Assembly (NCBI GenBank): GCA_910583685.1 | Contig: CAJTXY010000001.1 | Span: forward strand, 4,755 to 68,754 | Origin: an uncultured Bacilli bacterium | Lineage (GTDB): Bacteria > Bacillota_I > Bacilli_A > RF39 > UBA660 | Length of the DNA stretch: 64,000 bases | Reading direction: 5' to 3' | Part shown: positions 20,448 to 64,000 of the stretch, in pieces | Layout of the letters: every line of letters starts with the position of its first letter | Position numbering within the stretch: position 1 is the stretch's first letter | Program-made: the position numbers and the translations under genes | Notes under the pieces: model-generated | What the model saw: the letters and a program-made list of their open reading frames with translations, nothing else | Database searches by the model: none | Told to the model about the DNA's origin: nothing

Positions 20448-20612
20448 AAATGGTAAAACTATCACTTCTATTTTCCTTATAATAATTGATTCGAAAAATT
20501 GTTCTTGAAATTCTGATAATGCTCTAATTTGTTCATCTGTATAATCTTTCTCACTAGGTGCCACTACTAACTTGTCATTATTATCATTTGTTCTATGAAT
20601 ATATGCAATCAC
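20427..20612 (-). CDS. Possible small protein (61 aa) whose start overlaps the Nudix stop
   Basis: 4-nt ATGA overlap with the upstream Nudix gene stop on the same strand. No homology recognised. It overlaps the 3' end of the convergent plus-strand gene. Confidence 0.25.
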   Translation of the reverse strand: MIAYIHRTNDNNDKLVVAPSEKDYTDEQIRALSEFQEQFFESIIIRKIEVIVLPFLFFRIN

Positions 20613-21055
20613 TTTTCATTTTCTATCTTCTTTAACTTTTCTATCACGTACCATAAAAGTGGTGAAGTATTTTCTCCTGTTAACTTGTCCATTTTAACCC
20701 ATACGGCGTCATCAGAATCGATACAGTCATCCCCACTTTTGATTCTAGACTCTTTTATTTCTACTTTATATAAAATGCCGATTCGTTGTAGGTCTTCTTG
20801 CGTAAATCTATTTATCTTCCACTTAACATTGACACTCGCCGTATCCCAAAGTTTTGCTTTTAACACCTCTGCCCCTAATTCTTCTTTACATTCTCTATAT
20901 AAAGCATCGATTGGATTTTCGTTATGTTCAATTCCACCACCTGGCAAATCATATTTTCCCTTGTCACCACCATACGCTTTTTTAATTAATGCTATTTTTT
21001 CTTCTTTTTCAATGATTGCATATGCACCAACTAATGTTTTTCTAACGATTCTCAT
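20609..21055 (-). CDS. NUDIX hydrolase
   Basis: Nudix box GGGIEHNENPIDALYRECKEELG. Confidence 0.8.
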   Translation of the reverse strand: MRIVRKTLVGAYAIIEKEEKIALIKKAYGGDKGKYDLPGGGIEHNENPIDALYRECKEELGAEVLKAKLWDTASVNVKWKINRFTQEDLQRIGILYKVEIKESRIKSGDDCIDSDDAVWVKMDKLTGENTSPLLWYVIEKLKKIENEK

Positions 21056-21963
21056 TTCTTCTCCTCCTCTGCTCCTTTAAAAATTTGTTTTATAATCTCT
21101 ACTCTTTTTTCATCAGGAATCCCAAAGCCACTTGCTTTTTTATGACCTCCACCCCCAAGGGTAGTTGCTAACTCCGCTAAATCTACATTATCCTTTTGTG
21201 TTCTAAGACTTACTCCTCCGCCAACATTTATCATTGCAATAAAATCAAGCTCTGGATGTGCATTTTGAAGCAGCATTCCAAGTTCACTGCGATAATTCTC
21301 TGCGAAAACAACACCGACTTTATAATTCTGATAAGTAAAAGTCAGCAATTGTTCATTTTTTCTTTCGAAGTATCGTTTGATTCTACTTTCCTCAATTTCC
21401 AAGATCTCTTCCTCTGTATTGGTGATTATAGGGACACCTTCATCATTTAAATTCTTAACAAAGTGATCAATATAGCCTAGATTCCCATATATTTCAAATA
21501 AGTCTCCTAATCTTTTGGCAGTAAAATCTTTCTTTGTAACCCAATGCCATAAATCAAGATTTTTTACACATTCTACATAATCATTTATTTTAGACGTGTT
21601 TAATTGTTCGTTGTTTGTTTTTAAATAATGATAAAACAAGGACGTTGCACATTCATTGATATCTAATGTAACAAATGGGTATTTAGAAGCATACTGCTGA
21701 CTAATATGATGGTCGAAGACACAAAATTTTTCTTTCCAGGATTGCTTTTCTATCCATTCATAAAGTTCTTCACTAAGAGATAAGTCTGTCACATAAATAT
21801 GTTCATAATTATCTAAATCTTCTTTAAGTAAAAGAGAAACTTTCTCTTCTACTTCTTCTATTTCTAATAAGTGAAAATCGACATCTCTTTTCAATAACTT
21901 TAATAAAATTACAGGACTTACCCCATCTACATCCTTTGCATGTGTTATGATCATATCTTTCAT
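21052..21963 (-). CDS. DHH/DHHA1 phosphoesterase (NrnA-like nanoRNase / pAp phosphatase family)
   Basis: Motifs DVDG, VTDLS, VFDHH and a C-terminal GGGGH (DHHA1). Confidence 0.7.
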   Translation of the reverse strand: MKDMIITHAKDVDGVSPVILLKLLKRDVDFHLLEIEEVEEKVSLLLKEDLDNYEHIYVTDLSLSEELYEWIEKQSWKEKFCVFDHHISQQYASKYPFVTLDINECATSLFYHYLKTNNEQLNTSKINDYVECVKNLDLWHWVTKKDFTAKRLGDLFEIYGNLGYIDHFVKNLNDEGVPIITNTEEEILEIEESRIKRYFERKNEQLLTFTYQNYKVGVVFAENYRSELGMLLQNAHPELDFIAMINVGGGVSLRTQKDNVDLAELATTLGGGGHKKASGFGIPDEKRVEIIKQIFKGAEEEKK

Positions 21964-23386: not shown

Positions 23387-25564
23387 TTATATAATTACGG
23401 TTTGGATTGTTTTTGCAACAGATAACACAACTGAAGTTAATGCATCTGGAATTTCTGTTTTATCCCTTGAAGTGATGCCTCCATTTAATTCACTCTTAAT
23501 TTTGTCAATGTCAATATCAATCATAATATTTACACGATTACCATAACCATCTTTTAATCTTACAGTATCCATCATTGACTCCTCGTATATTTTAGAGAAA
23601 ATTTTGGAATTGCCTACTAATGTCCATCCCCTTGGTAAAAAGACACTTCGATTTGTTGTGATTGTTACTTTTACCTTGCCATCTTCTGTTAGACTATATT
23701 TAATATCAGAAATCTCTGGATTCTCTTTGTTGATATCAAACACTTCATATTCTACTTCTGCTATATTTCCAAGTTTATCTTGAACTTTTACTGTAGCCTT
23801 CGTATTTTCCGTAAACACTTTAGAGATTGATTTTTGATCATTTGATAAAGTCCATCCATTTTTCAAGTCTTCTAATTCTTCATCTGCCGATATCGTTACT
23901 ATTACATCCTTATTTGTTTTGATATGATCTGCATTACTAGTTGTAATTTTGATACCTGATACTTCACGATCTATATTAGAAACTATACATTCTACCTCTA
24001 TTTGATTTCCTGCTAGGTCCTCAATTGTTACTGTTTCTTCACCATTTTCTGTAAACAGCTTTGTAATTTCTGTCTTTGTAGTATTGTAATTCCAATCTTC
24101 ATTTCCTATTACCTTTATTTCTTCATCCGCAATAATTTTTCCAAGTACATCTTTATTGGTTTTTTGCATTGGACTAACCATAAAAATCGCCTTTGGTGGT
24201 GTTTTATCAATGTTATTTATTTCAATTGTAATATAGCCTGTATTTTGATAAGCGTCTGTCAGTTTTACTTTCTCTATCGTGTTTTTCTTATAGACTTTTC
24301 TAAAGACTGTTGAATTCTGCACCATTTGCCAGCCACTTGGAGCGAAAATAGATTTGTTCGTAGTGATAATAACTTCCACATCACCATTTGTAAGTTCTCT
24401 TGTACTATAAGTAATTCCATTTTCTACAATGGCTGGAATTTCTTTACTAATATCAAACACTTCGTAATTTGCCTTCACTGCATTTCCTGCTAAATCTTTT
24501 ATTTCTAGTTCTCCTGTAGTATTGGCAGCGAAAACTTTACTTAATTCTAAACCATTATCTGATAGTTTCCAACCTGAGACTGGTTGTAATTTCTCATTTG
24601 CTGTTATAAAAATAGTGACATCTTGATTCGTCTTTTCTCCATTATTACTACTTTTCACCGTAACAAGTGGTGCGGTTTTATCAATGGTAAATACTAGTGT
24701 TGCTTTTTGATAAGCACAATCTACCACCGTTACTTCGTATTTCCCCTCTGTTTGAAACGAAAGTGTCTTTTCTAAAGATACTGTTTTTCCATTTACCTGG
24801 ATCTCTTTTAGATTTTCTTCCTCAATTGTAAGAATAACATCATAGTTTACAATCGCGTTATTTGCTACTCCTGTTAATATAGGTTTTTTATTGTCATCTA
24901 AAATGATATTTAGGTTATCTAATTTTGATTTTAGTTCCAACTTTACCTTACTATCATCGATATTTTCAACTAAGGCATTTATATTTTGTTTATCTCTATA
25001 TTCTCTTGCCTCTAAAATTTCATCTCTGCTCTTTGCTGCATTTACTTTTTCCTGCAATGTTTCTACTAATTTTCTTATATCAGCATACGGATCTTTTTCA
25101 TCAGGAGAATCTGGATCTGTTGATCCTCCTGGCTTATCTGGTTTATCTGGAGTTTCTGGTTTATCTGGTTGATTTTCATTGTTATTATCAGGATCTGTAC
25201 TTTCTCCAGGTTTACCAGGTGTATCTGGATGGGTTATATTTCCTGAATCCGGATTTTGACTATTTTCATTTCCTGTAATCATATCTGCTACTGGCGGAAT
25301 TGTTACATTTTGATAGACAAAGTTTTGAATTCCTTTGGCATTATTTTGTTGTTTCCAGATATCTTGTGTCAAGTCAGTAGAAGAATTTTCTGTAAGCCCT
25401 TCTTTGGTTTCATTTTCAGAAATCGTTTTCCCTTCTTCTGGTATATATCTATTTTCTACTTCTTCTTCCAATTCTAAATACTCTTCATTTGGATTTGCAA
25501 ATACGAAAGTACCCAATCCTAAAAATAAAATAATCGCAATGATCCCTATTTTTTTCTTATTCAT
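23387..25564 (-). CDS. Large secreted/surface protein with a Pro/Asp-rich linker and at least 4 tandem Ig-like repeats (about 95 aa each)
   Basis: N-terminal signal LGLGTFVFANPNEEY resembles the SipW-cognate GGTFAYFSDKE motif. Low-complexity PDKPETPDKPDKPGG linker. Repeated blocks ...KTNKDV...WxLSxx...SKVFxxNT...ExxVxDISKExP. No LPXTG motif. Confidence 0.7.
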   Translation of the reverse strand: MNKKKIGIIAIILFLGLGTFVFANPNEEYLELEEEVENRYIPEEGKTISENETKEGLTENSSTDLTQDIWKQQNNAKGIQNFVYQNVTIPPVADMITGNENSQNPDSGNITHPDTPGKPGESTDPDNNNENQPDKPETPDKPDKPGGSTDPDSPDEKDPYADIRKLVETLQEKVNAAKSRDEILEAREYRDKQNINALVENIDDSKVKLELKSKLDNLNIILDDNKKPILTGVANNAIVNYDVILTIEEENLKEIQVNGKTVSLEKTLSFQTEGKYEVTVVDCAYQKATLVFTIDKTAPLVTVKSSNNGEKTNQDVTIFITANEKLQPVSGWKLSDNGLELSKVFAANTTGELEIKDLAGNAVKANYEVFDISKEIPAIVENGITYSTRELTNGDVEVIITTNKSIFAPSGWQMVQNSTVFRKVYKKNTIEKVKLTDAYQNTGYITIEINNIDKTPPKAIFMVSPMQKTNKDVLGKIIADEEIKVIGNEDWNYNTTKTEITKLFTENGEETVTIEDLAGNQIEVECIVSNIDREVSGIKITTSNADHIKTNKDVIVTISADEELEDLKNGWTLSNDQKSISKVFTENTKATVKVQDKLGNIAEVEYEVFDINKENPEISDIKYSLTEDGKVKVTITTNRSVFLPRGWTLVGNSKIFSKIYEESMMDTVRLKDGYGNRVNIMIDIDIDKIKSELNGGITSRDKTEIPDALTSVVLSVAKTIQTVII

Positions 25565-26296: not shown

Positions 26297-27898
26297 CTAT
26301 TCTATTTGTTGTTCTTCTGATGTTACGTGATCACTTATAATTTCCTGTTCTTGTGGTGGTACTGTTACATTCGTGGTGGAGTAATCGCTTACATTGCCAT
26401 TTTCTTCTGCTGGCGGCTCATTTATTACAGCAGGCGGCTCCTCTTCTTGTTTTTTTGTCACTTGAAAAGTAAGGTAACCATCTAATACTTGATAGGTATC
26501 ATTTTGTCTTTCCCAGGCAAATTTGTCACAGAGAGTGTTCATTAATGAAATTACATCCATTTGTGCAACATCTCGAGTGTCATAGTAAACTTGAATTTCA
26601 TAGGAATCCGTTTGTTCTATTATAGATACTGGCATAATAAAGGCTTCATTATAACCTTCTTTTAATACAATTTCTAACAGTATGCTACCGTTCTCATCCC
26701 CTACTACAAATTGTTTTTTATCACTAAGGGCGGCCTCATAAGTCATCGATACCCAATTTAAAATATCTTCCTGTTCTAGTAATTGTGCTTTTAGGGCATT
26801 AGAAAGAGTAGAATTCTGATTAATTGCTGTTTTAAAGAATTCTTTTTTCTTATCAGACTCTGGAGAATATAGTGTAACAGAAGAGTCCGTAACTAATTCA
26901 TATGCCTTTTCCATTAGACTCTCATCCAATACTAGTTTTCCTTCTGTTTTATCAAGAGTGATTCCTGGTACTACTATTTGTCCATTCCATAGTGCATAAA
27001 TACCATCTGTAGAGGCAATATAGTTAGAAATAAGATAGTAATTATCACGATTATTAAAACAATAATATTCTGCTAAATAGTATTCAAATGTCTCTTCAAT
27101 GGATGTTTTCTCATCTGTTGTAAAATACATAACATTTTTATCCACTTGGTTTATATTCTCATAATAGGTACGTGCGTAGCCAAGGAAGCTATCTAAAACG
27201 ACATAATTATAGTCATAATAATCACGGTAATCAATTTGAAGTCCTAAAATTTCATTTGGATTTTCGCAAGCTTTGATGTAACTTTCTATTTCCTCTTTAT
27301 AAGCATAAAGATATGGGTTATTTATCAACAAATTTTGAATTAGACTATCTTGAAATTGCAACATAGTTTCATCTGTGGTATCCTTCTCTTCTAATTCTAC
27401 AGATTTGGAAATAGGTTCTAAGTAGTGATATTCTTTATATAAAAAATATGCTTCATTCTCTATACTTTCCAATGCCGATACCGAAACATCCAACTTGCTT
27501 TCTTCTGTTATAATTTCACTTGTTTGTAAATTGCATATAAATTCTACTTTTATTTTTTCTTCTTCCTCAGGAATGATGAGGCTATTTTCAACTAAAGTCT
27601 CACAACCATTAGGAAGTACTAATTTATAGTTAGAGCTCTCATTTGTCATTACATTAGTACTGTCCTTAGGGATGAAAAGAGAGAATGTTGCTGTTTCTGT
27701 CTCAAGTTGTTCAAGGGTTATAGTGCCAACATCACTTTGTTTTTGAAAGGCTAATGTAGAATGATATTTTAAATAATCTGTTCTTTTTTCTTGATATTTT
27801 GCATTAGACTCAGGACAATGAAAAAGAAAGAAAGATACAAAGAATAAAAAGACAAGACAACTTGTTTGAATGGTACTTTTATATACTTTATTTTTCAT
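26297..27898 (-). CDS. Secreted protein of unknown function (533 aa, acidic, Tyr-rich)
   Basis: Signal peptide with an SNA|KY cleavage site. No recognised domains. Confidence 0.55.
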   Translation of the reverse strand: MKNKVYKSTIQTSCLVFLFFVSFFLFHCPESNAKYQEKRTDYLKYHSTLAFQKQSDVGTITLEQLETETATFSLFIPKDSTNVMTNESSNYKLVLPNGCETLVENSLIIPEEEEKIKVEFICNLQTSEIITEESKLDVSVSALESIENEAYFLYKEYHYLEPISKSVELEEKDTTDETMLQFQDSLIQNLLINNPYLYAYKEEIESYIKACENPNEILGLQIDYRDYYDYNYVVLDSFLGYARTYYENINQVDKNVMYFTTDEKTSIEETFEYYLAEYYCFNNRDNYYLISNYIASTDGIYALWNGQIVVPGITLDKTEGKLVLDESLMEKAYELVTDSSVTLYSPESDKKKEFFKTAINQNSTLSNALKAQLLEQEDILNWVSMTYEAALSDKKQFVVGDENGSILLEIVLKEGYNEAFIMPVSIIEQTDSYEIQVYYDTRDVAQMDVISLMNTLCDKFAWERQNDTYQVLDGYLTFQVTKKQEEEPPAVINEPPAEENGNVSDYSTTNVTVPPQEQEIISDHVTSEEQQIE

Positions 27899-29183: not shown

Positions 29184-32030
29184 CTACTTACAAAGTTTAT
29201 TTGTTTTAAAATGAAGGGCAACTGATAAAAAATAACGATCGTTTAAAGTTTCATCAAATTTTGCTTGTGCTGCTTGATTTCCAATTAGTGTATCTAATTT
29301 ATCGGACTCAGAATCCATCTCTACCCATTTCCAGAAAATCGTAATTGGTGCTTCTTCTCCTTTTTTAAGGGTAATTGGCTGATTGAAATTGATTTTCTTT
29401 CCTTTGTAATTAGGAAGAGTTGGATCTACATCATAATTTAGAACCTGATATTGATCTAGATTTCCATAATAGTAATAGGCTTCTTTTCCTAAGGCAGGAA
29501 TATGTCTTACAATATACCCCATATTCAAGCACCCTTTTTTAGGAATACAAATGGTATCTTCTAATAATGTCATTCCTGTAAGGGTAATGGAGTCTGCATA
29601 TTCATTTTTAAAGTTTGCAATGTAGTAGCCTTTGGCACCTGGGTAAATGACTTTATCTTTATGATATTGGTTGTAGTATTCCTCATTATGGAAAATCGGA
29701 ACATCTTTTAGCCATAAGACCTCTTCCAAAAGATCATCTGTTATGGGAATAGAAACCGAGTCATAAATTGCAAATAATTCTAAATCATCATCCAAGTTTT
29801 CAATTATTTTTTTATCTGACCGATTATATAGAATTGGTCCATCTATAGTCTTACTATAGCCAAGGAACTTATAATATTTACAGTGATCCTTCTCATCTAA
29901 CTTATATGGTTCATCATAGTCAGATAAGTCGATCTTTTCATCAGCAGAAATTTCGAATTGATAGTGATCTTCTGCTGCGTTGAATTGACCACCATTAGCA
30001 GAAAGAAAAACTGAATATTTACGAATTATTTCAATAGGAATCGATAAATTTTCAAATTCCTTTCCATTTAATACTCCACGAATAGTCAAAGTGGCTCCTC
30101 CAGGATTATTTCCATAAACCCCAATTGGTAAATAGCTTGGTGCTTCCTCAGAAGAGTCATAGGCAAGATATTCGATATTCTGATCGTTAGTAGAAACAAT
30201 GATACAAGTGTCTTGTTGCTTCAAAGAACATATTTTAATTTCCTTTTTATCATCACTTTCACTGACGGAAACTTTTCCTGTAAATATATTTGTATTTAGA
30301 ATAACATCTATATTTCCGCGAATATTTCCCGTTTCATCTTTAGAAACACTCATCTGGTATTTATCTTTTGAGGAATTTAAGTATGCTTTCACATCATCAA
30401 ATATAACTGTTGTTGTAGTAGAGGCATCTTGGTAATCTAGAGAGAGTTTTATACTCTGATTCAGAAATTTGTCCTTTAAAGTCTCGTCTGGTTTTAATAC
30501 TAAAACTCCCTTTTCAGGATTTTCCACTGAAATTACAGACGAAAATTTTTCGGAAATACTAGCACTAATTTTTGAATGATCATAATCAGTCGTTTCTATT
30601 CCATTCTTATATACTTTATATAAGATTGCAAAATCCAAGTTTTCTGTATACATCGAAAATTGGTATAAATTGCGATCAAATTTCAAAGTATATTTCGATT
30701 CCCTGTAAATATTAACAATGTAGTCTTTTAATGTTCCATCTTCAGCTCGAACTGTTATTACGACCTTGTTATCTCCATACTTTAAGTCTAAATCCTTTAA
30801 AGAAGATACTTTCTTTCCATTGTAGGTAATTTCTGCTTTGCTACTCTCGGCAATTGCTTTGATATCAATTTTATCTGTATTTGCATCTACTACTACCTTG
30901 TACTCTGTTTTCTCTTTTGAAAAATCGGGACTCAATTTACCTACACTTACTTGAATATCTTTCAAGTAGGCATTTGTATCTTTTTTCGCATCTTCCTTTT
31001 TCTCACGATGAATTGTAATGGTATAGCTTTTTGTTGAACCATCTTCCGCCCGAACTGTTATTACTACTGTGTTGTCACCATACTGAAGAGGAAAATCTTT
31101 TAGCGAAGATAGCTTCTTTCCATTATAGGTAATCACTGCGTTGCCACTTTCGGCAATTGCTCGTATATCGATTTTGTCAACACTGGATCCTACCTGTACA
31201 TAATAAGATGTACGATAAGGAGAGAATTTAGGAGACAAAGTTCCTGTACTTAGTTTAATATCTTTTAAGTTGCAATTTGCATCTTTATGTTTCTTTATTG
31301 TAATTTCATTTATTACTGTCAACAAGTATTTGGCCTTATATGTTTTGCCACGATAGCGAAGTGTTAATGTGATTGTTACTTTTCCTGTTTTAAATGCAGT
31401 AATTTTAAAATAACCATCTTTCAGCTCCACTTTTGCAATATGCTCATCACTAGAAGAAACCTTAGGACGGCCGCTTAGCCCAATAAATTGGTAGGTTACA
31501 AGCTTCTCATTCGTTTCTGCTAAGTTTATTGTCCCTTTTTGAGAAGATAGCTTAATAGAAGGTGCCACTTTTGTCTTTCCTACTTTAGCCAAAAGCGTCG
31601 CTTCATAGTGCATATGATTTGTTGTAGTTTGTAAGACTACTGTAACCGTTCCTTTTTTATGAGTATTGATTACAACATATTTTCCTACTACATAGCAGGT
31701 TGCTACAGAGGCATCACTTGTAGTACAAGAAAACTTTTGAGGTTTTATTTTTTTATATGAAAATCCTACTTTAGCTTTTTCTCCCACAGAAAGTTCCACG
31801 TAGTTTCTATCAAATTTTAACTCTTTATTTCGACGGGTTTCTAAATCTAGAATTTCTTTCTCAATGGTATAATCCCCTTGATTAAAGAACTCATCCCCAA
31901 TTTTGCCAAAAAACATAGAAGTACAACTGCAACTGGTAAGTAAAGTTATCAGAATAAGAATAATCATAATAGCATAGATGATAATATGTCTCATTCGGTT
32001 TTTGTCTTCTTGCTTTTCATCATGTATCAT
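29184..32030 (-). CDS. Giant surface lipoprotein (948 aa) with two cadherin-like beta-sandwich domains plus additional Ig-like domains
   Basis: Lipobox LLTSC. Two about 90-aa repeats: LKDI.LS.G.LSP.FS...T.Y.V.V.....KIDI.AIAES..A.ITYNGKK.SSLKD..L.YGDN.VVITVRAEDG..K.Y...I.RE, matching the cadherin-like domain pattern. Confidence 0.7.
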   Translation of the reverse strand: MIHDEKQEDKNRMRHIIIYAIMIILILITLLTSCSCTSMFFGKIGDEFFNQGDYTIEKEILDLETRRNKELKFDRNYVELSVGEKAKVGFSYKKIKPQKFSCTTSDASVATCYVVGKYVVINTHKKGTVTVVLQTTTNHMHYEATLLAKVGKTKVAPSIKLSSQKGTINLAETNEKLVTYQFIGLSGRPKVSSSDEHIAKVELKDGYFKITAFKTGKVTITLTLRYRGKTYKAKYLLTVINEITIKKHKDANCNLKDIKLSTGTLSPKFSPYRTSYYVQVGSSVDKIDIRAIAESGNAVITYNGKKLSSLKDFPLQYGDNTVVITVRAEDGSTKSYTITIHREKKEDAKKDTNAYLKDIQVSVGKLSPDFSKEKTEYKVVVDANTDKIDIKAIAESSKAEITYNGKKVSSLKDLDLKYGDNKVVITVRAEDGTLKDYIVNIYRESKYTLKFDRNLYQFSMYTENLDFAILYKVYKNGIETTDYDHSKISASISEKFSSVISVENPEKGVLVLKPDETLKDKFLNQSIKLSLDYQDASTTTTVIFDDVKAYLNSSKDKYQMSVSKDETGNIRGNIDVILNTNIFTGKVSVSESDDKKEIKICSLKQQDTCIIVSTNDQNIEYLAYDSSEEAPSYLPIGVYGNNPGGATLTIRGVLNGKEFENLSIPIEIIRKYSVFLSANGGQFNAAEDHYQFEISADEKIDLSDYDEPYKLDEKDHCKYYKFLGYSKTIDGPILYNRSDKKIIENLDDDLELFAIYDSVSIPITDDLLEEVLWLKDVPIFHNEEYYNQYHKDKVIYPGAKGYYIANFKNEYADSITLTGMTLLEDTICIPKKGCLNMGYIVRHIPALGKEAYYYYGNLDQYQVLNYDVDPTLPNYKGKKINFNQPITLKKGEEAPITIFWKWVEMDSESDKLDTLIGNQAAQAKFDETLNDRYFLSVALHFKTNKLCK

Positions 32031-38565: not shown

Positions 38566-38997
38566 CTACTCCAGTTCCAAAACTTCTATTTCGTCAACAA
38601 CAGCTAGCTGTTGTTCAATAATAAGCTTTAATTTTCTTTTAAATATTTTCATATTTTTCTCTATAACTTCTCGATTTACTTCGATTTTTTCTGCTTTTAG
38701 TAATGCTTCATTCACGATGCGATCTGCATTATGTTTTGCATTATCTATAATCATAGCAGATTCTTCTTTGGCTGTATTTTTTATGTTTTCGCCATTTATT
38801 TCAGCATTTCTTACAGCCTGTTTTAATGTTTCCTCTATTCTGCGATAATGCTCTAATTCACTTTTTAGCCGATCGATTTCTAGTTCTTGATGTCTGCATT
38901 TATTGACAATGTCTTCTGTTTGTGTAATAACATCATTAATAAATCGATTTACTTCATTGCGATTATATCCATTTGCCTCATAATTAAATTTTTCCAT
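38566..38997 (-). CDS. DivIVA-domain protein lacking the canonical N-terminal membrane-binding segment
   Basis: FNYEANGYNRNEVNRFINDVI matches the DivIVA motif F...RGY...EVD.FLD.V, followed by a coiled coil. An upstream in-frame TAG precludes a longer N-terminus. Confidence 0.5.
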   Translation of the reverse strand: MEKFNYEANGYNRNEVNRFINDVITQTEDIVNKCRHQELEIDRLKSELEHYRRIEETLKQAVRNAEINGENIKNTAKEESAMIIDNAKHNADRIVNEALLKAEKIEVNREVIEKNMKIFKRKLKLIIEQQLAVVDEIEVLELE

Positions 38998-39021: not shown

Positions 39022-39456
39022 TTACCAATTAAAATCGTCATCTTCCTTTTCTTTTTTGCTGCGACTAGTTTTTGGTGCTGCAGCTTCCTTATCATCACTA
39101 ATTTTTCCTTCAACATTAATATTGTTAGGAGTACATAGGAAAATACCACCACCTAGTTTTTGTAAATCACCACCAATTGCATATAGGGTTCCACTAAGGA
39201 AATCTACAATTCTCTTTCCCTGATCAGGTGTTACTCTTTTTAAATTCACTACTACTGCGTTACGTGCCTTTAAATAATCTGCAATTTGCTGAGACTCTGA
39301 ATATGCCCTAGGTTCTAATAGCATCATTTTAGATCCTGCCATTCCATTCTCATCATGATATTCTTCCCTCGATGTTGAATAGAATTCTTCTTCTACTACA
39401 TCCTCACTTACCTCTTCTTCTGGTCCAAATAATCCTTTTAATTTATCTAAAGCCAT
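39022..39456 (-). CDS. sepF: Cell division protein SepF
   Basis: [66 protein letters not shown] is a SepF core. Start set at MALDKL. Confidence 0.8.
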
Positions 39457-39552
39457 TTTATTTCCTCCATTCAAGCCTATCTTATCTTAACTATCTATCA
39501 TTGTAGCATATTTTTTTTATTTATAAAAGTATAAATTTGAAAATTTAATTAC

Positions 39553-41400
39553 CTATAGTGGGTCACTTGTATTCCCAACTCGTTCAATCGGTGTTACGGT
39601 AGTTTGGGTTGTTACTGGTGTTTGCATTTGTGTATAATGATACCAAATATTGTTTACATCTACATTGTTGCTTAATGGTGTAGGATTTGGTTTGTCTACA
39701 TACATAAATACTGGTACTTTGAAGGCATTTCCAAAAGCTACACAGTTACCAGGTTTTAGGCTTTTTAACTGCACTATTATTTCCTGCGATACGTTTGGTA
39801 CCATATTTTTAATATAATCTAAATCTTTTGGATGCAATGTTCTCAATATTACGAAATTTGAGCATTGAGATATCGCAGTATCAGAAAGCTCTGATGGTCT
39901 TTGCGTAATAAGACCTAGAATTACTCCATATTTTCTTCCCTCTTTTGTAATTCTATCAAAAATATTATAGCCTAAAATTTCTGTATCTGTATCTTTTTGA
40001 ACATAGCGATGTGCTTCTTCTATCAAAATATGAAATGGCATACTACCACGAACTGAATTTTCTACAGCCATATTAAATAACATTTTTGATAAAATTTTAG
40101 TAATCACTTTCGCAAGACGGTCATCAATATAGTTAATATTGAAATTTACAATTTGACATTTACTGTTACTCATTGGATCTGTCAATAATTTTTGGATATA
40201 ACCTGCTCGTGATACATACTCTGGGTAATCAAAATATGCTTTCGCTTCACTATTTGCTAATGTATGAAGTCTAACACTTAATACATTGGCATAGTCGAAT
40301 ACTTTATCACTTTTTAGAATTCCTTCAGAAATCAAGGCAAAGTCCATTGCTTGTTCTAAATCAGATAATGTATAGTAGACTGGTTGGTCTTGTGTTTTAT
40401 TTAAAGAGAGACTATCGTCTATAAAGCCTTTTACGAATTCAACGATTAACTCCATTTCTTGCATTTTGCCCATTTTATCAATTAATAAGCATTGTTTAAA
40501 CGTTCTAACATAACCAGGTTGGGCAATAGTAGACTCTAAGTTTAATTCTTCTGTATTAAATTTTGTAAGAACTGCTACTACTTGATCTCGAATTTTTGTA
40601 GCCTCGTGACCGCTTAGTAGAATATCTTCTAAGGCTCTTGCTATAATATCATTTTTATGTTTGATTACATCAGGAGAATTTCCTGCCAAGATTGGCACTA
40701 GTTTCAGCATTTTTTCAATGATTGGTAATTGATTTAGCGTTGTTACATCTAATAGTAATGCTAAGTCATCTACCCCTAGTAACCATACTGGTATTTTTAT
40801 AATATCAGTATCGGCAAATTTGGTGTTTGTTGTATAGGTTTTATAATGGATCATAGGATTGTGCTTATTTAAATCTTTAAAGGCACTTGTATACTCTCCA
40901 TAGGCATCAAACATAAAAATATTAGCACCTATAGGAGCATCTTTTCTCGAGTGGAAAAGCTTCTGTATTAGACTTGATACCGTAAAACTTTTTCCCGCTC
41001 CACTATTTCCTAAAATTGCAAAATGATTACTAAAAAAGTCATTTACAGGAACATTGATCTTATAATTTTTATATACATTGGAATAGCCAAAGAAGGTATA
41101 GCCATCTGTTGTTTCTTGTTTTCCTAAAAATACTTCTAGCTCTTCCATTTTTATCATTCGCACTAGAGATTTAAAAGCAGGTTTGGAAGAGACTCCTGGA
41201 GTAAAAGAGGCTCCTTTTAATTCACCAACAATATTAATAAGCATTTTTTTTTGATCTACATTTGCAATCTCTCCCACAATCTTTTCCTCGCCACTTTCAA
41301 AAACAACGTGAAGATTTACAAGATTGGGCTGCTTATTAATATCAATAGCGAGTTCTACAATGACACTGTTTTCTAATATTTCAATGATTTTCCCTAGCAT
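39553..41400 (-). CDS. HerA-family (DUF87) ATPase with an N-terminal HAS-barrel
   Basis: Walker A ILGNSGAGKS; FMFDAYGEY; Walker B HILIEEAHRYV; GLITQRPSELSDTAISQCSNFVILR (HerA/FtsK-type TQRP motif). N-terminal beta-barrel-like region. Confidence 0.7.
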   Translation of the reverse strand: MLGKIIEILENSVIVELAIDINKQPNLVNLHVVFESGEEKIVGEIANVDQKKMLINIVGELKGASFTPGVSSKPAFKSLVRMIKMEELEVFLGKQETTDGYTFFGYSNVYKNYKINVPVNDFFSNHFAILGNSGAGKSFTVSSLIQKLFHSRKDAPIGANIFMFDAYGEYTSAFKDLNKHNPMIHYKTYTTNTKFADTDIIKIPVWLLGVDDLALLLDVTTLNQLPIIEKMLKLVPILAGNSPDVIKHKNDIIARALEDILLSGHEATKIRDQVVAVLTKFNTEELNLESTIAQPGYVRTFKQCLLIDKMGKMQEMELIVEFVKGFIDDSLSLNKTQDQPVYYTLSDLEQAMDFALISEGILKSDKVFDYANVLSVRLHTLANSEAKAYFDYPEYVSRAGYIQKLLTDPMSNSKCQIVNFNINYIDDRLAKVITKILSKMLFNMAVENSVRGSMPFHILIEEAHRYVQKDTDTEILGYNIFDRITKEGRKYGVILGLITQRPSELSDTAISQCSNFVILRTLHPKDLDYIKNMVPNVSQEIIVQLKSLKPGNCVAFGNAFKVPVFMYVDKPNPTPLSNNVDVNNIWYHYTQMQTPVTTQTTVTPIERVGNTSDPL

Positions 41401-41470
41401 ACAAACACCCTCTTATTCTGTTAATATTATAACGAAAAAAAAATGAAAAGTCTAGTATCAGTTTTTCATT

Positions 41471-41953
41471 TTAGTTTAATTTAATGAACAATATATCATT
41501 ATCGTGTTCTGTAATCATCTTCTTAACATTATCGAAATCTAGAAAAACAGTGGCTGTGTTCGTATTTGGATGAAAACCAACATTCTGTTTCCCGATTAGC
41601 TCTTTATCAAAGAGAACTATTACACTTTTTGTCTCATCATTTAAGATGCCAAATGGTGAAACATAACCATTTTCCAACTTCAAGTATTTATCTAATCGTT
41701 CACTAGAAGCAAAACTAAGTCTTGTACTCCCAATTTTTTTAGCAATTTCATCTAGTTTTATCTCTTTCGAATGATGGCAACATAAAAGGAAGTGCATTTT
41801 CCCGTTTGCATTACGTAAAAATAAATTTTTACATACGTAACCCTTATCTAAAAGTCCCTCTTTTTCCATATCTTCAATAGTATGAACTTCTTTATGCTCT
41901 ACCAAGTTATATTTTATGTTTTTTGAATCCAAATAATCTAAAACTTCTTTCAT
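41471..41953 (-). CDS. ybaK: YbaK/ProX-family aminoacyl-tRNA deacylase (trans-editing of mischarged tRNA-Pro)
   Basis: HFLLCCHHSKEIKLDEIAKKIGSTRLSFASSERLDKYLKLENGYVSPFG resembles the YbaK core. Confidence 0.65.
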   Translation of the reverse strand: MKEVLDYLDSKNIKYNLVEHKEVHTIEDMEKEGLLDKGYVCKNLFLRNANGKMHFLLCCHHSKEIKLDEIAKKIGSTRLSFASSERLDKYLKLENGYVSPFGILNDETKSVIVLFDKELIGKQNVGFHPNTNTATVFLDFDNVKKMITEHDNDILFIKLN

Positions 41954-41963
41954 ACTTTCACCT

Positions 41964-42575
41964 CTATAAATCTATTTCATTTGCAATACTACACATTGCA
42001 GCAAGGGCAATACTTGCAAATTCTTCTAAATCAATTCCACATTTTTCTATTGCTAACATATAACTACGATTCGCTCCTCTTGCAAAGCGAGTTTCTTTAA
42101 ATCTTTTTAAGATAGAAGATACCTTTACACTGTTTACTTTTTTGTCAGGATAACCTCTAGCAATAGCCGAGATAAAGCCACTCATTGGATCTGCAGCTAA
42201 AAGTGCATACTCTATTTTTGTTTTTGCACGATACCCACATTTTGGATTATGGGCCATAATTGCATTATATAACGTGTCATCCCCGAAGCCTTCCTCTACT
42301 AAAATTTCCTTTGACTTCGGTCCATGTACTGCCATATTTTCCTGCCAAGGGCAAGACTCCTCATCTAAATCATGCAACAGTCCTGCAATTCCCCACTCTT
42401 CTATATGTTCTGAATCCAATTTTTCGGCAAGAGATCTCATAATTGCTTCTACTGCTAAAGAATGTTTAATATAAAAGTCCTCTTTCACATACTTATTTAA
42501 AATTTCAAAAGCTTGTTGTCTTTTTTCCATCAAATCACCTAAAATGAGTCTATCACATCCCTTATATAAAGTCAA
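41964..42575 (-). CDS. HD-domain phosphohydrolase
   Basis: H...(28)...HD motif: IKHSLAVE...GLLHDLDEE. The start is probably the internal MEKRQQ. Confidence 0.55.
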   Translation of the reverse strand: MTLYKGCDRLILGDLMEKRQQAFEILNKYVKEDFYIKHSLAVEAIMRSLAEKLDSEHIEEWGIAGLLHDLDEESCPWQENMAVHGPKSKEILVEEGFGDDTLYNAIMAHNPKCGYRAKTKIEYALLAADPMSGFISAIARGYPDKKVNSVKVSSILKRFKETRFARGANRSYMLAIEKCGIDLEEFASIALAAMCSIANEIDL

Positions 42576-42651: not shown

Positions 42652-42728
42652 CGGGAAGTGGCTCAACTTGGTAGAGCACTTGGTTTGGGACCAAGGGGTT
42701 GCAGGTTCAAATCCTGTCTTCCCGACCA
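42652..42728 (+). tRNA. tRNA-Pro (anticodon UGG)
   Basis: Cloverleaf read by hand: acceptor CGGGAAG/CTTCCCG, anticodon stem CTTGG/CCAAG with loop TTTGGGA, T-loop GGTTCAAATCC, encoded CCA. Confidence 0.85.
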
Positions 42729-42822: not shown

Positions 42823-43557
42823 TTATATTTGGTAAAACAAACTTTTTAAATCCCTTTTCTTTATTCGAAAAGCAGTTCCGTGATCGTGGATCTTGCCTTT
42901 TTTGGATCCCGTTCTAAAAACTCCAATTGTAAAGCATATTGTTATCTTTCCCTTCTCTATTGATTTTAAAAAGCACGAAAAGTTTCGTAAATGATATAGT
43001 TTAAGTGAAGTATATTGAAAATATTTTTCAGTACCTACTCTTTTTTCTTTGGCATCAATATAAGCCAGAATCGTAAGCTTTCTTTCTAACTTTTCCTTTA
43101 GCAAGCGAAAAGTCCAAAAGGTTTCCTTATCAATTAATTGTGAATTTCTGTAAATACATAAATATATTTTTTCTTCAAGGTAGTCTATTTCTAGTTTATA
43201 TGAATACCAAAGTCCTATTTTTTGCTTTTCTATAGCATTTACTTCTCCTTTTAATACCTTGCAATATTTCAAAATACGATCAGGATACCCATACATTTGT
43301 TGTAATCTTTTAATTTCAAATAAATATCTTCCATCGGGTGTTGCATTAAATAATGTTGTATAAGACTTACTATATTTTTTGTGGGTTTTTAACTCAATTC
43401 CTAAGTAATCGGGAAATTCAAAATTTTCTTTTTCTTTTCCTAATAATTTTTCAAGAGTAAGTCCTATACTCCCCTTTCCTTCATTCACACTTTTTACCCA
43501 TCCTAACTTTTTTACTTTTTTAAATTCTTTTTGTAATTGTTGCATTTCTTTTTTCAT
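42823..43557 (-). CDS. MvaI/BcnI-family type II restriction endonuclease homologue (no adjacent methyltransferase)
   Basis: KGSIGLTLEKLLGKEKENFEFPDYLGIELKTHKK parallels the BcnI/MvaI catalytic region (G..G..LE...G....N.....D.GE.ELK; PD-(D/E)XK). Confidence 0.55.
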   Translation of the reverse strand: MKKEMQQLQKEFKKVKKLGWVKSVNEGKGSIGLTLEKLLGKEKENFEFPDYLGIELKTHKKYSKSYTTLFNATPDGRYLFEIKRLQQMYGYPDRILKYCKVLKGEVNAIEKQKIGLWYSYKLEIDYLEEKIYLCIYRNSQLIDKETFWTFRLLKEKLERKLTILAYIDAKEKRVGTEKYFQYTSLKLYHLRNFSCFLKSIEKGKITICFTIGVFRTGSKKGKIHDHGTAFRIKKRDLKSLFYQI

Positions 43558-43982: not shown

Positions 43983-45425
43983 ATGTCAAAGACAGACAAA
44001 TATGTAAAAGCTATAACATCACAAAATGATGATTTTGCACAATGGTATACAGATGTTGTTAAAGAGGCAAAACTTTGTGATTATTCTGGTGTAAAAGGAT
44101 GCTTAAACTACTTACCGAATGGTTATGCCCTTTGGGAAAATATTCAAAAAGACTTAGATCAAAGATTTAAAGATACAGGAGTTGAAAATGTTTACTTGCC
44201 AGTTTTGATTCCTGAGAGTCTAATGGAAAAAGAAGGAGATCATATTGAAGGATTCGCTCCAGAAGTTGCTTGGGTTACACACGGTGGAATTGAACGCCTT
44301 GAAGAAAGGTTCTGTATTCGTCCAACCTCTGAAACACTATTCTGTGATCACTGGCAAAAGACAGTAAAGTCATACCGTGATTTACCAAAAGTATGGAATC
44401 AATGGAACTCTGTATTACGTTGGGAAAAAACAACAAGACCATTTTTACGTTCTCGTGAATTCTTATGGCAAGAAGGTCACACTTTACACGCAACAGCAGA
44501 AGAGGCTCGCGAGAGAACACAAATGATGCTAGATGTTTATTATGATTTTGTAACAGAAGATTTGGCAATTCCACTTATTAAAGGAAGAAAAACGGAAAGC
44601 GAAAAATTTGCAGGTGCTGAAGAGACTTATACGATTGAGTCTATGATGAAAGATGGAAAGGCACTACAATCTGGTACCAGTCATTTCTTTGGTCACGGAT
44701 TCCCAGATGCTTTTGATATTAAATATTTAGATCAAAATAACCAACTTCACAGTGCATATGAAACATCGTGGGGGCTTTCTACTCGTATTATTGGTGCCAT
44801 CATTATGGTTCATGGTGATGACTCAGGACTTGTACTGCCACCAAGAATAGCACCTACACAAGCAATGATTATTCCTATTGCACAACATAAGGAAGGTGTA
44901 TTAGAGAAAGCAGAAGAACTTTTAACATCTTTAAAAAATGCTAATATTCGTACAAAAATAGATGATAGTGAAAAAACGCCTGGTTATAAGTTTGCACAAC
45001 AGGAAGTTCTTGGAATTCCAGTTCGTATTGAAATAGGTCCTAAAGATATTGAAGAAAATCAAGTGGTAGTCGTACGCCGCGATAACCACGAAAAAATCAC
45101 TATTAAAATTGATGAGGTTACAGTAAAACTTCCAGAGATTTTTGAAACTATTCAAAAAGATATGTACCGTCGGGCTAAAGAGTTTTTGGACTCTCATTTA
45201 GATAGTGCAACTACAATGGAGGAAATGGTAGAAAAATTTAAAACCAATCGTGGATTTATCAAGGCGATGTGGTGTGGAGATGAAGTTTGTGAGGGAGAGA
45301 TCAAATATGAAACAGGCGGTGCCGGTTCTCGTTGTATTCCTTTTGATAGCAAACACCTATCTGATAAGTGTATCTATTGTGGTAAAGAAGCAAAGCATAT
45401 GGTTATTTGGGGAAAATCATATTAA
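43983..45425 (+). CDS. proS: Proline--tRNA ligase, archaeal/eukaryote-like type (no INS editing domain)
   Basis: N-terminus ...FAQWYTDVVKEAKLCDYSGVKGCLNYLPNGYALWE and a C-terminal Zn-binding CxxC...CxxC tail, typical of archaeal-type ProRS. 480 aa. RBS GGAGGAG. Confidence 0.9.
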   Translation: MSKTDKYVKAITSQNDDFAQWYTDVVKEAKLCDYSGVKGCLNYLPNGYALWENIQKDLDQRFKDTGVENVYLPVLIPESLMEKEGDHIEGFAPEVAWVTHGGIERLEERFCIRPTSETLFCDHWQKTVKSYRDLPKVWNQWNSVLRWEKTTRPFLRSREFLWQEGHTLHATAEEARERTQMMLDVYYDFVTEDLAIPLIKGRKTESEKFAGAEETYTIESMMKDGKALQSGTSHFFGHGFPDAFDIKYLDQNNQLHSAYETSWGLSTRIIGAIIMVHGDDSGLVLPPRIAPTQAMIIPIAQHKEGVLEKAEELLTSLKNANIRTKIDDSEKTPGYKFAQQEVLGIPVRIEIGPKDIEENQVVVVRRDNHEKITIKIDEVTVKLPEIFETIQKDMYRRAKEFLDSHLDSATTMEEMVEKFKTNRGFIKAMWCGDEVCEGEIKYETGGAGSRCIPFDSKHLSDKCIYCGKEAKHMVIWGKSY

Positions 45426-56288: not shown

Positions 56289-57566
56289 TTATTTATGAAT
56301 TCCTTTTGTGATAACAAATGATACACCTTTTTTCTCATTTTTAATGATAATATCATAACCCATCATATTTAAAGTCTTTTTGACAATGGACAATCCTAGG
56401 CCAAATTCGCCTTTGATCCCTTTACGGAACGGAGTAAAAATTCCATTAAGTAAATCATCATCGATATTAGCACCATCATTATATAATATAATTTTATTAT
56501 ATTTAGCAGTTATTTTAATAGTCGTATTTGCATATCTCATAAAATTCCCAAGCAAATTGTCCAGTATTGTTTCCCAGTGTTCATCGGTTCCATAATACTT
56601 TGATCTTTTATCCATATCAAGAATAAATTTAATATCTTTTCTTTGAAACTTGAACTTAGAAACCTCGTCTTCTAAAATTTTTTTCATATCTACTAAAACA
56701 ATATTTAAATCTTTAGAATTCTTGAGATAATCTAGTTTATTTAAGTAAAGAAGTGAGTGTACTTTCTGTTCTAATTTATTTGTTTGCTCTCCAATGACCT
56801 TTAGAGCGGTATCTTTTTCTTCTACTCCGTCTTGGACAGCTTCCACATAAGATTTTATAACGGTGAGAGGTGTCTTAAAATCATGGGATATATTTTGATA
56901 CATTTGATTGCGGTACTCTTCCTGGTTCTTAAGAGATATCCGCATATCTTCAATAGCAAGTGCTAAAGACCGCATTTCATCATCCACTTCAAAATCTACT
57001 TTATGGTTATAGTCATCATTATCAATATTGTCAATTTTATTTTTGAGTTTTTCTATTTTTCTTACAATAAAGCCACTCCATATAATTAGTATTAAGGATA
57101 TTGAAAGAAAGGTTATTAGAACAATTGGTAGAATTGCTCCTAATATCTTTGCTTTTGTATGGTTAATATAAGTGTCATTACTAATTGCCACTTTTATAAC
57201 CGCATTTTTTCTAATTGTATAATAATAGTAAGTGTTATGTTGATATACAAATTTACCATAGTCATCTGTTAATTTTTTGACAAGAACTTTAGGATCTCTA
57301 ATATGTACAATATCATAAATATTTTCACTGGCAACAATAGAATCATTGACGATATATAAATATCCTACTTCTGTATTTAACAGATCTGTCTTTGTATTTG
57401 ACTCGATTAACTCTAATGGTTCTCTTAGATAATTATAAATATTTTCTTCTGCAACTGGCATAAGTACCTTAGGAATTATCACACCAAGAGCAATGAAGAT
57501 AATGGCAAAGGTGGCAACAATCAAGCATAAAAGTTGCCTCGATAGTTTAGATGTCATTGTCTTCAT
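56289..57566 (-). CDS. Sensor histidine kinase (2 TM, HisKA plus HATPase_c)
   Basis: H-box ISHDFKTPLTVIKSYVEAV; G-box GLGLSIVK. Confidence 0.8.
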   Translation of the reverse strand: MKTMTSKLSRQLLCLIVATFAIIFIALGVIIPKVLMPVAEENIYNYLREPLELIESNTKTDLLNTEVGYLYIVNDSIVASENIYDIVHIRDPKVLVKKLTDDYGKFVYQHNTYYYYTIRKNAVIKVAISNDTYINHTKAKILGAILPIVLITFLSISLILIIWSGFIVRKIEKLKNKIDNIDNDDYNHKVDFEVDDEMRSLALAIEDMRISLKNQEEYRNQMYQNISHDFKTPLTVIKSYVEAVQDGVEEKDTALKVIGEQTNKLEQKVHSLLYLNKLDYLKNSKDLNIVLVDMKKILEDEVSKFKFQRKDIKFILDMDKRSKYYGTDEHWETILDNLLGNFMRYANTTIKITAKYNKIILYNDGANIDDDLLNGIFTPFRKGIKGEFGLGLSIVKKTLNMMGYDIIIKNEKKGVSFVITKGIHK

Positions 57567-61920: not shown

Positions 61921-64000
61921 CTATTTTTTCCTCTTTACAAAAGAAAATTCATTATTTCCGTTTAAGATATTTCTTACAGCTACTAGCTCTTCTATTTGTC
62001 TTTCATCGTCTGTTGGTAAAACCATCTCTTCCACACTACCATCTTTTTTAATTGCGATATACCAATCTTGTCCTTTATAGACCTCTTCATATTCAAAGAG
62101 GTAAGCGTTATCAAAGTTGTTTTCTCTTTCCAATCTTTTATGCTCTTTTTTATCCATTATTACTTTTAAGGCTCTTATCTTATTAATATCTTCCATCGAT
62201 AAGTCTTCTTTTGTTGAGATTTTATCTCTTGTTTGTCTATAAAGCATCGTTGGAGTATTTTCTTCTAAAACCATTCTGTTTTCATTTCCACCAATTAGAT
62301 AATTACTAGCTAACCAATCAACGTGTGGGAGAGAGTCTATAATTTTAGGGTTCATTACCAAGGTATAATCTTCTAAATCAATTCTGGCATCTTTTGTTAA
62401 AAAGACATAGTCAATTTTGTCACCTGCCTTTTGTGCTTTTAATAACAGTTCATTAGAAATTTGTGATAAAAATTCTTTTTTATAAAGATCCTGATATAGG
62501 CCACTTTCTCCAATAATGGATGAGCATACTATATAATTGCCTTTCCTGAAAAAAAGCATACGAGCAATAAATTCTCCTTTTATTCCTTTTATCATTAAAA
62601 CATCTGCATTTTTCTTTGTTAGTGTTTCTGTAAATGCCTCTTTTCCTTCTCCACCTGGTCCAAGGCAACTATAACTACAATTACATCCCATTAAAAGACG
62701 CATTATGTCATACATATTTCCACTTTCATATGTATACTCTTGGTAAGTTCCCAAAAGAGGTGGAATTTCCTTTTTTGTCGTCTTTAGCATTTCTAGATAG
62801 ATATCTACGTATTCTTTTGGATCATTACTTTTCTTTGCTTTATTATAACATAATATTTTTTCTATAGTCTCTTCTCCTAAAATGCTTCTTATTTCTTCTG
62901 TGGTATGACTATAAATTGTAGATAACTTTAATACCTGATGAAATCTACTTAAAATACTTTTAAGGCTCCCATCAAAATTAGGGTTCTCTTCTTTTAGGCG
63001 TTTTATAATCTGGTTTGAATATTTAAGTATATTCATCATCTCTCTTGTTTTAAATTCCTCTACTAAATTAACAATGGGTAGTAGTTCTAACCATACTTGA
63101 CTGCTTTCTTCTTCAAAAATTTCTAGGCCTGTATTTTCCTTTTTACATAATGTTAAAAGCTCTTGTAAATTTTTTTGATACCATAAATTATCACCAATTA
63201 ATAAATGGTTATAGTTATACTCTATTTTTTCTCTAAGAAGCTCTTCCTTTAACGTAAGACGTTCAGCAATTATTGGCAGCATTTTTTTATTGTACTCATT
63301 TCTAATTTCTTTTACTTCGTTTTCTGATAGAAAAAGATTACAACTTTCTTCTATATGTTCCTTTGTAAGTTTTCCTGTAAAGAATAACTTTCCTACATCA
63401 AAAAGTATCTCTTCTGGTAAATCAGATATGTTCTTTTTTAAATGCTTTTTACTTATTACTTGTTTTGATACTTCTTCTATTATTTTTATAATATCTTTAG
63501 TAGTTAATCCGAAGTCCTCCTGCTTTTTCTCTTGAAATAAAGCATTCATCTGTTTTAAGGCCATAGTTCTTTTTCGCTTTGCCTCTTGTTTGGGTGTTAG
63601 TCGAAGTGTTTGTTTCAAATCCGCTTTTATGCCTGCTTTTTCCCATCTACAAAATTCATCCTGTTGTTTATTTAGAATTTCATTAAAAAATGGGGTCGTT
63701 AATTCTTTCGATAATGTTTTATATTTCCTATAAAACATATAGAACTGAGCTAGAGTTTGTTTATAATAAGGCAATTCCTCTTTTTTATTTGTCGCCTTAT
63801 ATATTTGAATGGCCAGTTTTTCAATTTTCTCTTTCTCATTAAATCTATTCATCGCTTCAAAAGTGGCAAGAGTCGTATCACAAAGGTAGGCAATAGATGC
63901 AAAACGTTTATTTTCACTATTATTTTTATAACGTAGTAAAACACAGGCGTCCATTATTTTATCGAGCATATAAAAATAATACTCTTGAACATCTGCATTT
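61921..64000 (-). CDS. Large hypothetical protein (at least 693 aa). The reading frame stays open to the window edge, so the N-terminus may lie outside the window.
   Basis: The track ORF starts at 63969, but the frame has no stop between there and position 64000. No recognised domain. Confidence 0.45.
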   Translation of the reverse strand, partial: NADVQEYYFYMLDKIMDACVLLRYKNNSENKRFASIAYLCDTTLATFEAMNRFNEKEKIEKLAIQIYKATNKKEELPYYKQTLAQFYMFYRKYKTLSKELTTPFFNEILNKQQDEFCRWEKAGIKADLKQTLRLTPKQEAKRKRTMALKQMNALFQEKKQEDFGLTTKDIIKIIEEVSKQVISKKHLKKNISDLPEEILFDVGKLFFTGKLTKEHIEESCNLFLSENEVKEIRNEYNKKMLPIIAERLTLKEELLREKIEYNYNHLLIGDNLWYQKNLQELLTLCKKENTGLEIFEEESSQVWLELLPIVNLVEEFKTREMMNILKYSNQIIKRLKEENPNFDGSLKSILSRFHQVLKLSTIYSHTTEEIRSILGEETIEKILCYNKAKKSNDPKEYVDIYLEMLKTTKKEIPPLLGTYQEYTYESGNMYDIMRLLMGCNCSYSCLGPGGEGKEAFTETLTKKNADVLMIKGIKGEFIARMLFFRKGNYIVCSSIIGESGLYQDLYKKEFLSQISNELLLKAQKAGDKIDYVFLTKDARIDLEDYTLVMNPKIIDSLPHVDWLASNYLIGGNENRMVLEENTPTMLYRQTRDKISTKEDLSMEDINKIRALKVIMDKKEHKRLERENNFDNAYLFEYEEVYKGQDWYIAIKKDGSVEEMVLPTDDERQIEELVAVRNILNGNNEFSFVKRKK

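Follow-up and report, generated by a model that had tools for sequence, protein, structure and literature searches.

A HerA-family ATPase without an effector partner, linked to sepF and divIVA in uncultivated gut Bacilli

HerA enzymes are double-stranded-DNA translocases and helicases, and HerA ATPases are currently seen as partners of nucleases or NADases, with functions in anti-phage defence or in the end resection of archaea and bacteria. Iyer et al. are said to have proposed in 2004 that archaeal HerA is the predicted counterpart of FtsK, an idea reportedly never confirmed. Here we analyze a herA gene in a stretch of 64,000 nucleotides (the window) on contig CAJTXY010000001.1 of an uncultured Bacilli bacterium. 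Its product belongs to a HerA clade that stands out in three respects: it has no effector partner, it is conserved in the manner of a housekeeping gene over hundreds of uncultivated gut species, and it is linked to division genes. No description of this effector-less clade turned up in literature searches, and the sole precedent to emerge was that of SftA and SepF in Bacillus subtilis, where SftA, a soluble protein of the FtsK family, is bound by SepF and brought to the Z-ring with its help (PMC9320952).

The gene and the segments encoding the parts of its product are located as follows.

39553..41400, minus strand: herA, HerA-family ATPase of 615 amino acids (aa) with an ATG start and without an effector partner (open reading frame, ORF; Pfam DUF87; PADLOC HerA; full-length HerA fold)
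41125..41400, minus strand: N-terminal HAS-barrel domain, residues about 1-92 (beta-strands 3-82 in the AlphaFold2 model)
40987..41010, minus strand: Walker A motif (P-loop) GNSGAGKS, residues 131-138 (G131, N132, S133, G134, G136, K137 and S138 invariant in 32 orthologues)
40171..40773, minus strand: helical insertion domain lying between the two Walker motifs, residues about 210-410 (helices 210-406 in the AlphaFold2 model)
40009..40032, minus strand: Walker B motif HILIEEAH, residues 457-464 (H457, I458, E461, E462, A463 and H464 invariant)
39895..39942, minus strand: EGRKYG (487-492) and TQRP (499-502), motifs of the FtsK-HerA superfamily (invariant in the orthologue alignment)
39556..39636, minus strand: C-terminal tail, disordered and variable, residues 589-615; its terminal peptide PIERVGNTSDPL is specific to the subclade (predicted local distance difference test, pLDDT, <50)

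The window protein is certainly a HerA-clade ATPase. It matched Pfam PF01935 (DUF87, the HerA central domain) with 81 bits and an E-value of 1.7e-22, above the gathering cut-off of 23.2, and its best PADLOC matches were HerA models, the generic one (PDLC04102) covering residues 43-596 at E 1.6e-112. The AlphaFold2 model (pLDDT 81.6; predicted template modelling score 0.78) comprises an N-terminal beta-barrel (3-82), a RecA-like core, the helical insertion and a disordered tail (589-615). Foldseek aligned it over the full length with solved HerA chains from Sir2-HerA, DUF4297-HerA and NurA-HerA (template modelling, TM, scores 0.6-0.78; about 16-21% identity), and the best match in a sequence search of the PDB had an E-value of 1.3e-39. 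An earlier note on this DNA, written from the sequence alone, had described a stand-alone ATPase of the HerA/FtsK superfamily with a full HAS-barrel, Walker A and B motifs and TQRP, and had proposed a DUF87 search; the Pfam match, the modelled barrel and the invariance of the motifs bear that description out. Also invariant among the 32 orthologues are the HAS-barrel residues E7, I8, N11, Q24, H31, G59, E60, K73, P74 and R81, and the helical insertion is strongly conserved across the alignment, for example in KNDIIARAL.DILLSG, STKIRDQV and QPGYVRT. EGRKYG forms the presumed arginine-finger region. The TQRP motif, located at 39906, occurs in no other ORF of the 64-kb window, which also holds FtsZ and FtsA. 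The protein is soluble, lacking any transmembrane segment. Judged by its motifs it is catalytically intact, and it would be expected to form a hexamer and to have DNA as its substrate.

More than 8000 clusters at 90% identity match the window protein, the 120 best all being at least 67% identical to it, and relatives are present in 210 GTDB species genomes. Eighty of these genomes were fetched, all of them metagenome-assembled genomes from the gut labelled Bacilli, Tenericutes, Mollicutes or Mycoplasmatota. A first set of 81 loci was assembled, within about 165 related loci overall that include metagenome loci, and neighbours were identified by tblastn and de-novo ORF clustering. When the same pairs of genomes were compared, the median pairwise identity was about 73-75% for HerA, 74% for SepF, 72% for asparaginyl-tRNA synthetase (AsnRS), 69.5% for isoleucyl-tRNA synthetase (IleRS), 62% for DivIVA and 50% for a PP2C-like protein. 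This identity level amounts to housekeeping-grade constraint, and the rate at which HerA of this clade evolves is as low as that of aminoacyl-tRNA synthetases.

A scan of 1.84 billion representatives of 50%-identity clusters returned graded matches at 64, 58, 51, 46, 45 and 44%, then at 35-39%, and then at about 31% identity. One protein in the intermediate range (P0137) is 37% identical to the window protein and 41-43% identical to Sir2-associated HerA proteins. In a neighbour-joining tree the effector-less clade was monophyletic in 200/200 bootstrap replicates, as was the SepF-linked subclade within it (200/200), and the nearest outgroup was HerA of the Sir2 type. The clade is restricted to gut Bacilli that have not been cultivated and that used to carry the label Tenericutes or Mollicutes; in them it is a vertically inherited core gene. 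These facts fit a history in which a Sir2-HerA-type HerA shed its effector and turned into a core gene, and in the ancestor of one large branch came to lie directly upstream of sepF-divIVA, where it has remained.

The closest annotated relatives are HerA proteins of Sir2-HerA (Nezha-type) anti-phage systems, such as those of Lactobacillus kefiranofaciens pWW2 and of Enterococcus and Listeria plasmids, at 30-32% identity over 87-95% of the length (E 1e-75 to 1e-85). These plasmid genes lie in every case directly downstream of a SIR2 gene, which they overlap. They share the full-length fold with the window protein (TM scores of about 0.6-0.7 to 8j4u, 8sub and 8wld). In contrast, no SIR2 gene was seen beside herA of the window clade in any of the approximately 165 loci, the window protein scores 5-fold under the NCBIfam equivalog cut-offs, and the window clade is a slow-evolving core gene in housekeeping synteny, whereas Sir2-HerA is patchy and borne on mobile elements. 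DUF4297-HerA and NurA-HerA (PDB 9c1m, 8xau, 8ziq, 9x1m and 4d2i) have the HAS-barrel, RecA core and helical bundle in common with the window protein (sequence E 1e-39 to 1e-24; Foldseek probability 1.0), at an identity of only about 16-21%. They differ in context: no NurA is adjacent in the window clade, and the annotated conserved neighbours are ordinary housekeeping genes, although no search was aimed at a DUF4297 partner.

SftA and the FtsK/SpoIIIE proteins are likewise ring ATPases of the FtsK-HerA superfamily with Walker A, Walker B and TQRP motifs; SftA, soluble like the window protein, is recruited by SepF (PMC9320952), and the window herA is genetically tied to sepF. The window protein is nevertheless not a member of the FtsK family. 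It carries a HAS-barrel in place of the FtsK alpha and gamma domains, for which no Pfam match was found in it; Pfam FtsK_SpoIIIE aligned with 29 residues only, at 20.1 bits, under the 24-bit cut-off; and a true FtsK coexists with HerA of this clade. The archaeal hypothesis mentioned above also envisaged a HerA-clade ATPase serving chromosome segregation or division, but the present case is bacterial and rests on sepF-divIVA synteny.

Scores against models of individual subfamilies fell far below the cut-offs of those models. The window protein reached 162 and 150 bits with the NCBIfam anti-phage models (HerA_antiphage; cut-offs 850 and 800), 118 and 102 bits with the repair-HerA equivalogs (cut-offs 800 and 970) and 50 bits with CedD (cut-off 600). 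Since the family and fold matches are strong while the equivalog scores are far below their cut-offs, the protein is of the HerA clade and, on these profile scores, outside every characterised HerA subfamily.

The two genes that follow herA are both division genes.

39022-39474, minus strand: sepF (Pfam SepF 7.7e-27; likely ATG start at 39456)
38566-38997, minus strand: divIVA (Pfam DivIVA 1.2e-23)

In the large subclade to which the window belongs, the three genes form an operon-like unit, and this arrangement is retained widely. The ORF that immediately follows herA is sepF in 65 of the 81 loci of the first set and in a further 14 metagenome loci, and several first-set loci without the adjacency are truncated contigs. 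DivIVA follows sepF in 57 of the 81, with a median gap of 28 nucleotides between the two. Wherever herA and sepF are both present (83 loci) they lie on the same strand, and in 72 of these the gap is at most 150 nucleotides (median 82). The order herA-sepF-divIVA recurs among metagenome members that share 57% or more identity with the window protein. The block is kept across at least four upstream contexts and variable downstream contexts, with a permuted order in one locus (L015): in most species the upstream genes encode AsnRS, the PP2C-like protein and a 200-aa lipoprotein, and in the window's sublineage YbaK, an HD protein, an MvaI-like gene or Xth. In the window, herA, sepF and divIVA are followed on the same strand by genes for PBP2B, MraY, FtsW, MurG, MurB, DivIB/FtsQ, a 441-aa ORF, FtsA and FtsZ, so that the block heads a stretched-out dcw region. 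That dispersed region (PBP2B, MraY, FtsW, MurG, MurB, DivIB/FtsQ, FtsA and FtsZ) occupies 6761-37716 on the minus strand; the 441-aa ORF (9216-10541), wedged between ftsQ and ftsA, has no Pfam match.

Seven loci (L114, L132, L133, L138, L160, L163 and L168) have the gene order ftsZ, ftsK, a deoD-like gene (named from its sequence), two M16 peptidase genes, herA, sepF and divIVA. The FtsK of these relatives is complete, with four transmembrane segments and alpha, motor and gamma domains (FtsK_SpoIIIE 218 bits). Since these loci carry a complete ftsK only a few genes upstream of herA, we rejected the idea that HerA replaces FtsK, at any rate for part of the clade.

The adjacency to sepF and divIVA suggests a role at the division site. 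The block was retained while both of its flanks turned over, and we therefore argue for functional coupling; this retained synteny, together with the SftA–SepF precedent, leads us by analogy to favour a DNA motor or monitor associated with the septum. Our preferred but tentative reading, to which we would give a little less than an even chance, is that the window HerA is a domesticated DNA motor at the division septum, an SftA-like auxiliary alongside the canonical membrane FtsK. Under such a mechanism HerA would interact with SepF or DivIVA, one or both of which would recruit it to the septum; its task there would be to clear chromosomal DNA, or to monitor it, as the septum closes, working alongside FtsK in an auxiliary role comparable to that of SftA. 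The earlier note had raised the possibility of a division-coupled translocase, and that part of it emerges both strengthened, by a same-strand herA-sepF-divIVA block in 83 loci, and qualified, by the confinement of the linkage to one monophyletic subclade and by the coexistence of FtsK.

Several observations weigh against a septal role. The monophyly of the SepF-linked subclade means that the adjacency reflects one ancient event followed by retention, which makes it less telling than repeated independent associations would be. A few members of that subclade, L034 and L150 among them, have no SepF nearby, and members 42-56% identical to the window protein occur in unrelated housekeeping settings: yqeG-yqeH-herA, secDF-relA-dtd-herA, ltaS divergent from herA, and ftsY-ylxM-herA-ffh. 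FtsK coexists with HerA in several relatives, leaving no evident gap in septal DNA pumping, and all clade members come from uncultivated organisms. Co-transcription of herA and sepF is also not certain, because their spacer holds a promoter-like site for sepF, the second of the two listed here; no terminator-like site was found on the minus strand between herA and divIVA.

41426..41454, minus strand: promoter-like site TAGACT-17-TATAAT upstream of herA (consensus match only)
39500..39527, minus strand: promoter-like site with extended -10 (TTTATA-16-TGcTACAAT) in the herA-sepF spacer (consensus match only)

If the septal reading is true, it would supply a stand-alone bacterial HerA with a cellular role for the first time, bring back the old notion that HerA-type motors can act in chromosome partitioning, and represent a defence ATPase taken over for core cell biology. 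Should the link to division prove unreal, the clade would still mark a core gene in abundant, poorly understood gut bacteria.

A more specific proposal, which we regard as unlikely, is that a HerA ring ATPase of defence origin was domesticated, in a major lineage of uncultivated gut Bacilli, to serve cytokinesis as a dedicated component, docking on SepF, DivIVA or both through its HAS-barrel face (the side that carries the effector in published HerA complexes) or its tail peptides and either coupling the status of septal DNA to closure or remodelling SepF assemblies. On that view no earlier HerA-clade protein would have had a part in bacterial cell division, and a defence module would have become housekeeping machinery. 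Linker-plus-peptide tails are typical of proteins that dock on hubs such as divisome hubs, and they count in favour of the preferred septal reading as well. About half of the orthologues have no tail and end right after the core domain, and the others carry disordered tails rich in Q, P and T. Among the 90 unique tails that reach 30 aa or more, 46 have a peptide resembling NRFIQ within their last 25 residues, where shuffling predicts 0.4; the window subclade has P[IL]ERV[GE]N (PIERVGN) in its place. These optional tails were noted among the C-termini of L018-L080 and P0009-P0126. In one protein (P0122) a KFIQ motif lies in an N-terminal extension, and one from the sister clade (P0126) has three HNPALDFG repeats. 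Sister-clade loci L084-L088 (43-44% identity, 730-940 aa) have long low-complexity tails and place a herA-like gene inside the signal recognition particle operon ftsY-ylxM-ffh, which is highly conserved elsewhere, in the order ftsY-(91 aa)-ylxM-herA-ffh. The acidic-aromatic C-terminus of SepF (…DDDFNW or …EDDFF) was also considered as a lineage-specific docking peptide and dropped, the end of B. subtilis SepF being similar.

Among the alternatives to a septal role, one that we judge improbable, if worth retaining, is a DNA-repair helicase or translocase like NurA-HerA, acting in end resection or another step of recombination or repair, with its nuclease encoded elsewhere and the sepF adjacency a historical accident kept by tight spacing. 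End resection with NurA is the best-established cellular role of HerA (PMC9960219, PMC3326311). The gene is housekeeping-like and occurs in varied contexts outside the SepF subclade, and genes for MutY and an Xth-like exonuclease, both named from sequence, lie a few kb upstream, not only in the window but also in several close relatives. Against repair stand the low scores with the NCBIfam repair equivalogs (102-118 bits against 800-970), the Sir2-type rather than NurA-type character of the closest relatives, and the fact that no locus has an adjacent NurA-like gene, although NurA and HerA are normally adjacent.

The remaining neighbours of herA bear on a second alternative, in which the protein still serves anti-phage defence. 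In the window they are as follows.

41471-41953, minus strand: YbaK-like aminoacyl-tRNA editing protein (deacylase)
41964-42575, minus strand: HD protein
42652-42728, plus strand: tRNA-Pro(tgg)
42823-43557, minus strand: MvaI/BcnI-family type II restriction endonuclease (Pfam 1.2e-46)
43983-45425, plus strand: prolyl-tRNA synthetase (ProRS), archaeal-type

A Pfam scan agrees with the placement, given in the earlier note, of sepF and DivIVA on one side of herA and of ybaK and an HD hydrolase on the other. No SIR2- or NurA-type gene is conserved beside herA in about 165 loci; among the window neighbours no SIR2 Pfam match was found, and NurA was found neither in the window nor among the conserved neighbours. 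The conserved neighbours are AsnRS, the PP2C-like protein, the lipoprotein, SepF, DivIVA, a CaCA-like membrane protein (named from sequence only) and IleRS; none of those annotated is other than housekeeping, with no search aimed at DUF4297. The view that HerA here has no nuclease or Sir2 partner therefore holds, though an MvaI/BcnI-type endonuclease lies one to three genes upstream in the window's sublineage. The HD protein, which the note had thought conceivable as a nuclease partner, was rejected: tblastn found no HD homologue near HerA in any of 80 related genome loci, and the protein lies beside HerA in this window alone. YbaK was rejected as well, being present only in the closest relatives; ybaK lies beside herA as part of a proline-decoding cluster with tRNA-Pro and the archaeal-type ProRS.

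On the defence alternative, which we consider distinctly improbable, HerA would act as a sensor or motor with an effector that is unlinked or unrecognised, in the window's sublineage perhaps a solitary MvaI/BcnI-type endonuclease. The nearest annotated relatives are Sir2-HerA pairs and the best PADLOC matches are HerA models, both of which favour it. The endonuclease gene occurs near herA in eight loci of the window's sublineage, in two orientations, and all eight orthologues retain an intact catalytic motif PD-x4-E-x-K (D50/E55/K57). No methyltransferase motif (DPPY/SPPY-type) was found near it, the single SPPY match of the window (20595-21080) being in a spurious-looking ORF. Defence genes are typically patchy and fast-evolving, whereas this HerA combines conservation at the level of aminoacyl-tRNA synthetases over more than 200 species with fixed housekeeping synteny, and no SIR2- or NurA-type neighbour was seen in any locus, with no search directed at DUF4297. 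Its HerA_antiphage scores (150-162 bits) compare with cut-offs of 800-850. The MvaI-like gene itself is confined to one small sublineage and absent from the main lineage, adjoins a tRNA gene, and evolves much faster (42-65% identity, against 67-85% for HerA).

It is also possible, but in our view very improbable, that the protein does not act on DNA at all and that its ring remodels or disassembles SepF rings or the DivIVA lattice, or translocates a protein substrate. The tight linkage with two polymer-forming division proteins would suit such an activity, as would the strongly conserved HAS-barrel face, which in the published NurA-HerA and Sir2-HerA complexes binds partner proteins. To our knowledge, the characterised HerA-clade enzymes all act on DNA, which argues against a polymer remodeller, as does the absence of the sepF linkage from sister subclades. 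A further point in its favour is that SftA inhibits SepF polymerisation in vitro (PMC9320952).

The least probable alternative, a conjugation (VirB4/TraC-like) or phage-packaging ATPase in a mobile-element remnant, has a negligible chance and is, on the scores and composition, effectively refuted: the weak partial NCBIfam matches to VirB4, TraC and CD1110 (22, 18 and 46 bits) compare with cut-offs of 643, 567 and 325, phage relatives amount to three weak partial matches, one of them a terminase at 28% identity over 30% of the query, IMG/VR holds no relatives, the GC content of herA equals that of its flanks and is uniform over the region, and no type IV secretion system, relaxase, integrase or phage genes occur among the window neighbours or the annotated conserved neighbour clusters. 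The two identities that the earlier note had named as fatal to its proposal, a VirB4/TraC-like ATPase and a gene lying in prophage remnants in relatives, were thus not encountered. A known defence, conjugation or phage HerA was accordingly rejected, with scores far below the NCBIfam cut-offs, no conserved SIR2- or NurA-type partner and no close phage or viral relatives.

Elsewhere in the window, two structured RNAs on the minus strand scored above their Rfam gathering scores, a T-box leader at 733-930 (127.6 bits) and a 6S RNA at 5685-5870 (51.7 bits). Three large ORFs, all on the minus strand, had no Pfam match at E <= 1e-4: 23387-25564 (725 aa), 26297-27898 (533 aa) and 61921-63969 (682 aa). 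A 948-aa protein with cadherin-like domains is encoded at 29184-32030. Two histidine kinases are present on the minus strand, a hybrid kinase with a fused receiver domain at 15451-17262 and a HAMP-containing one at 56289-57566.

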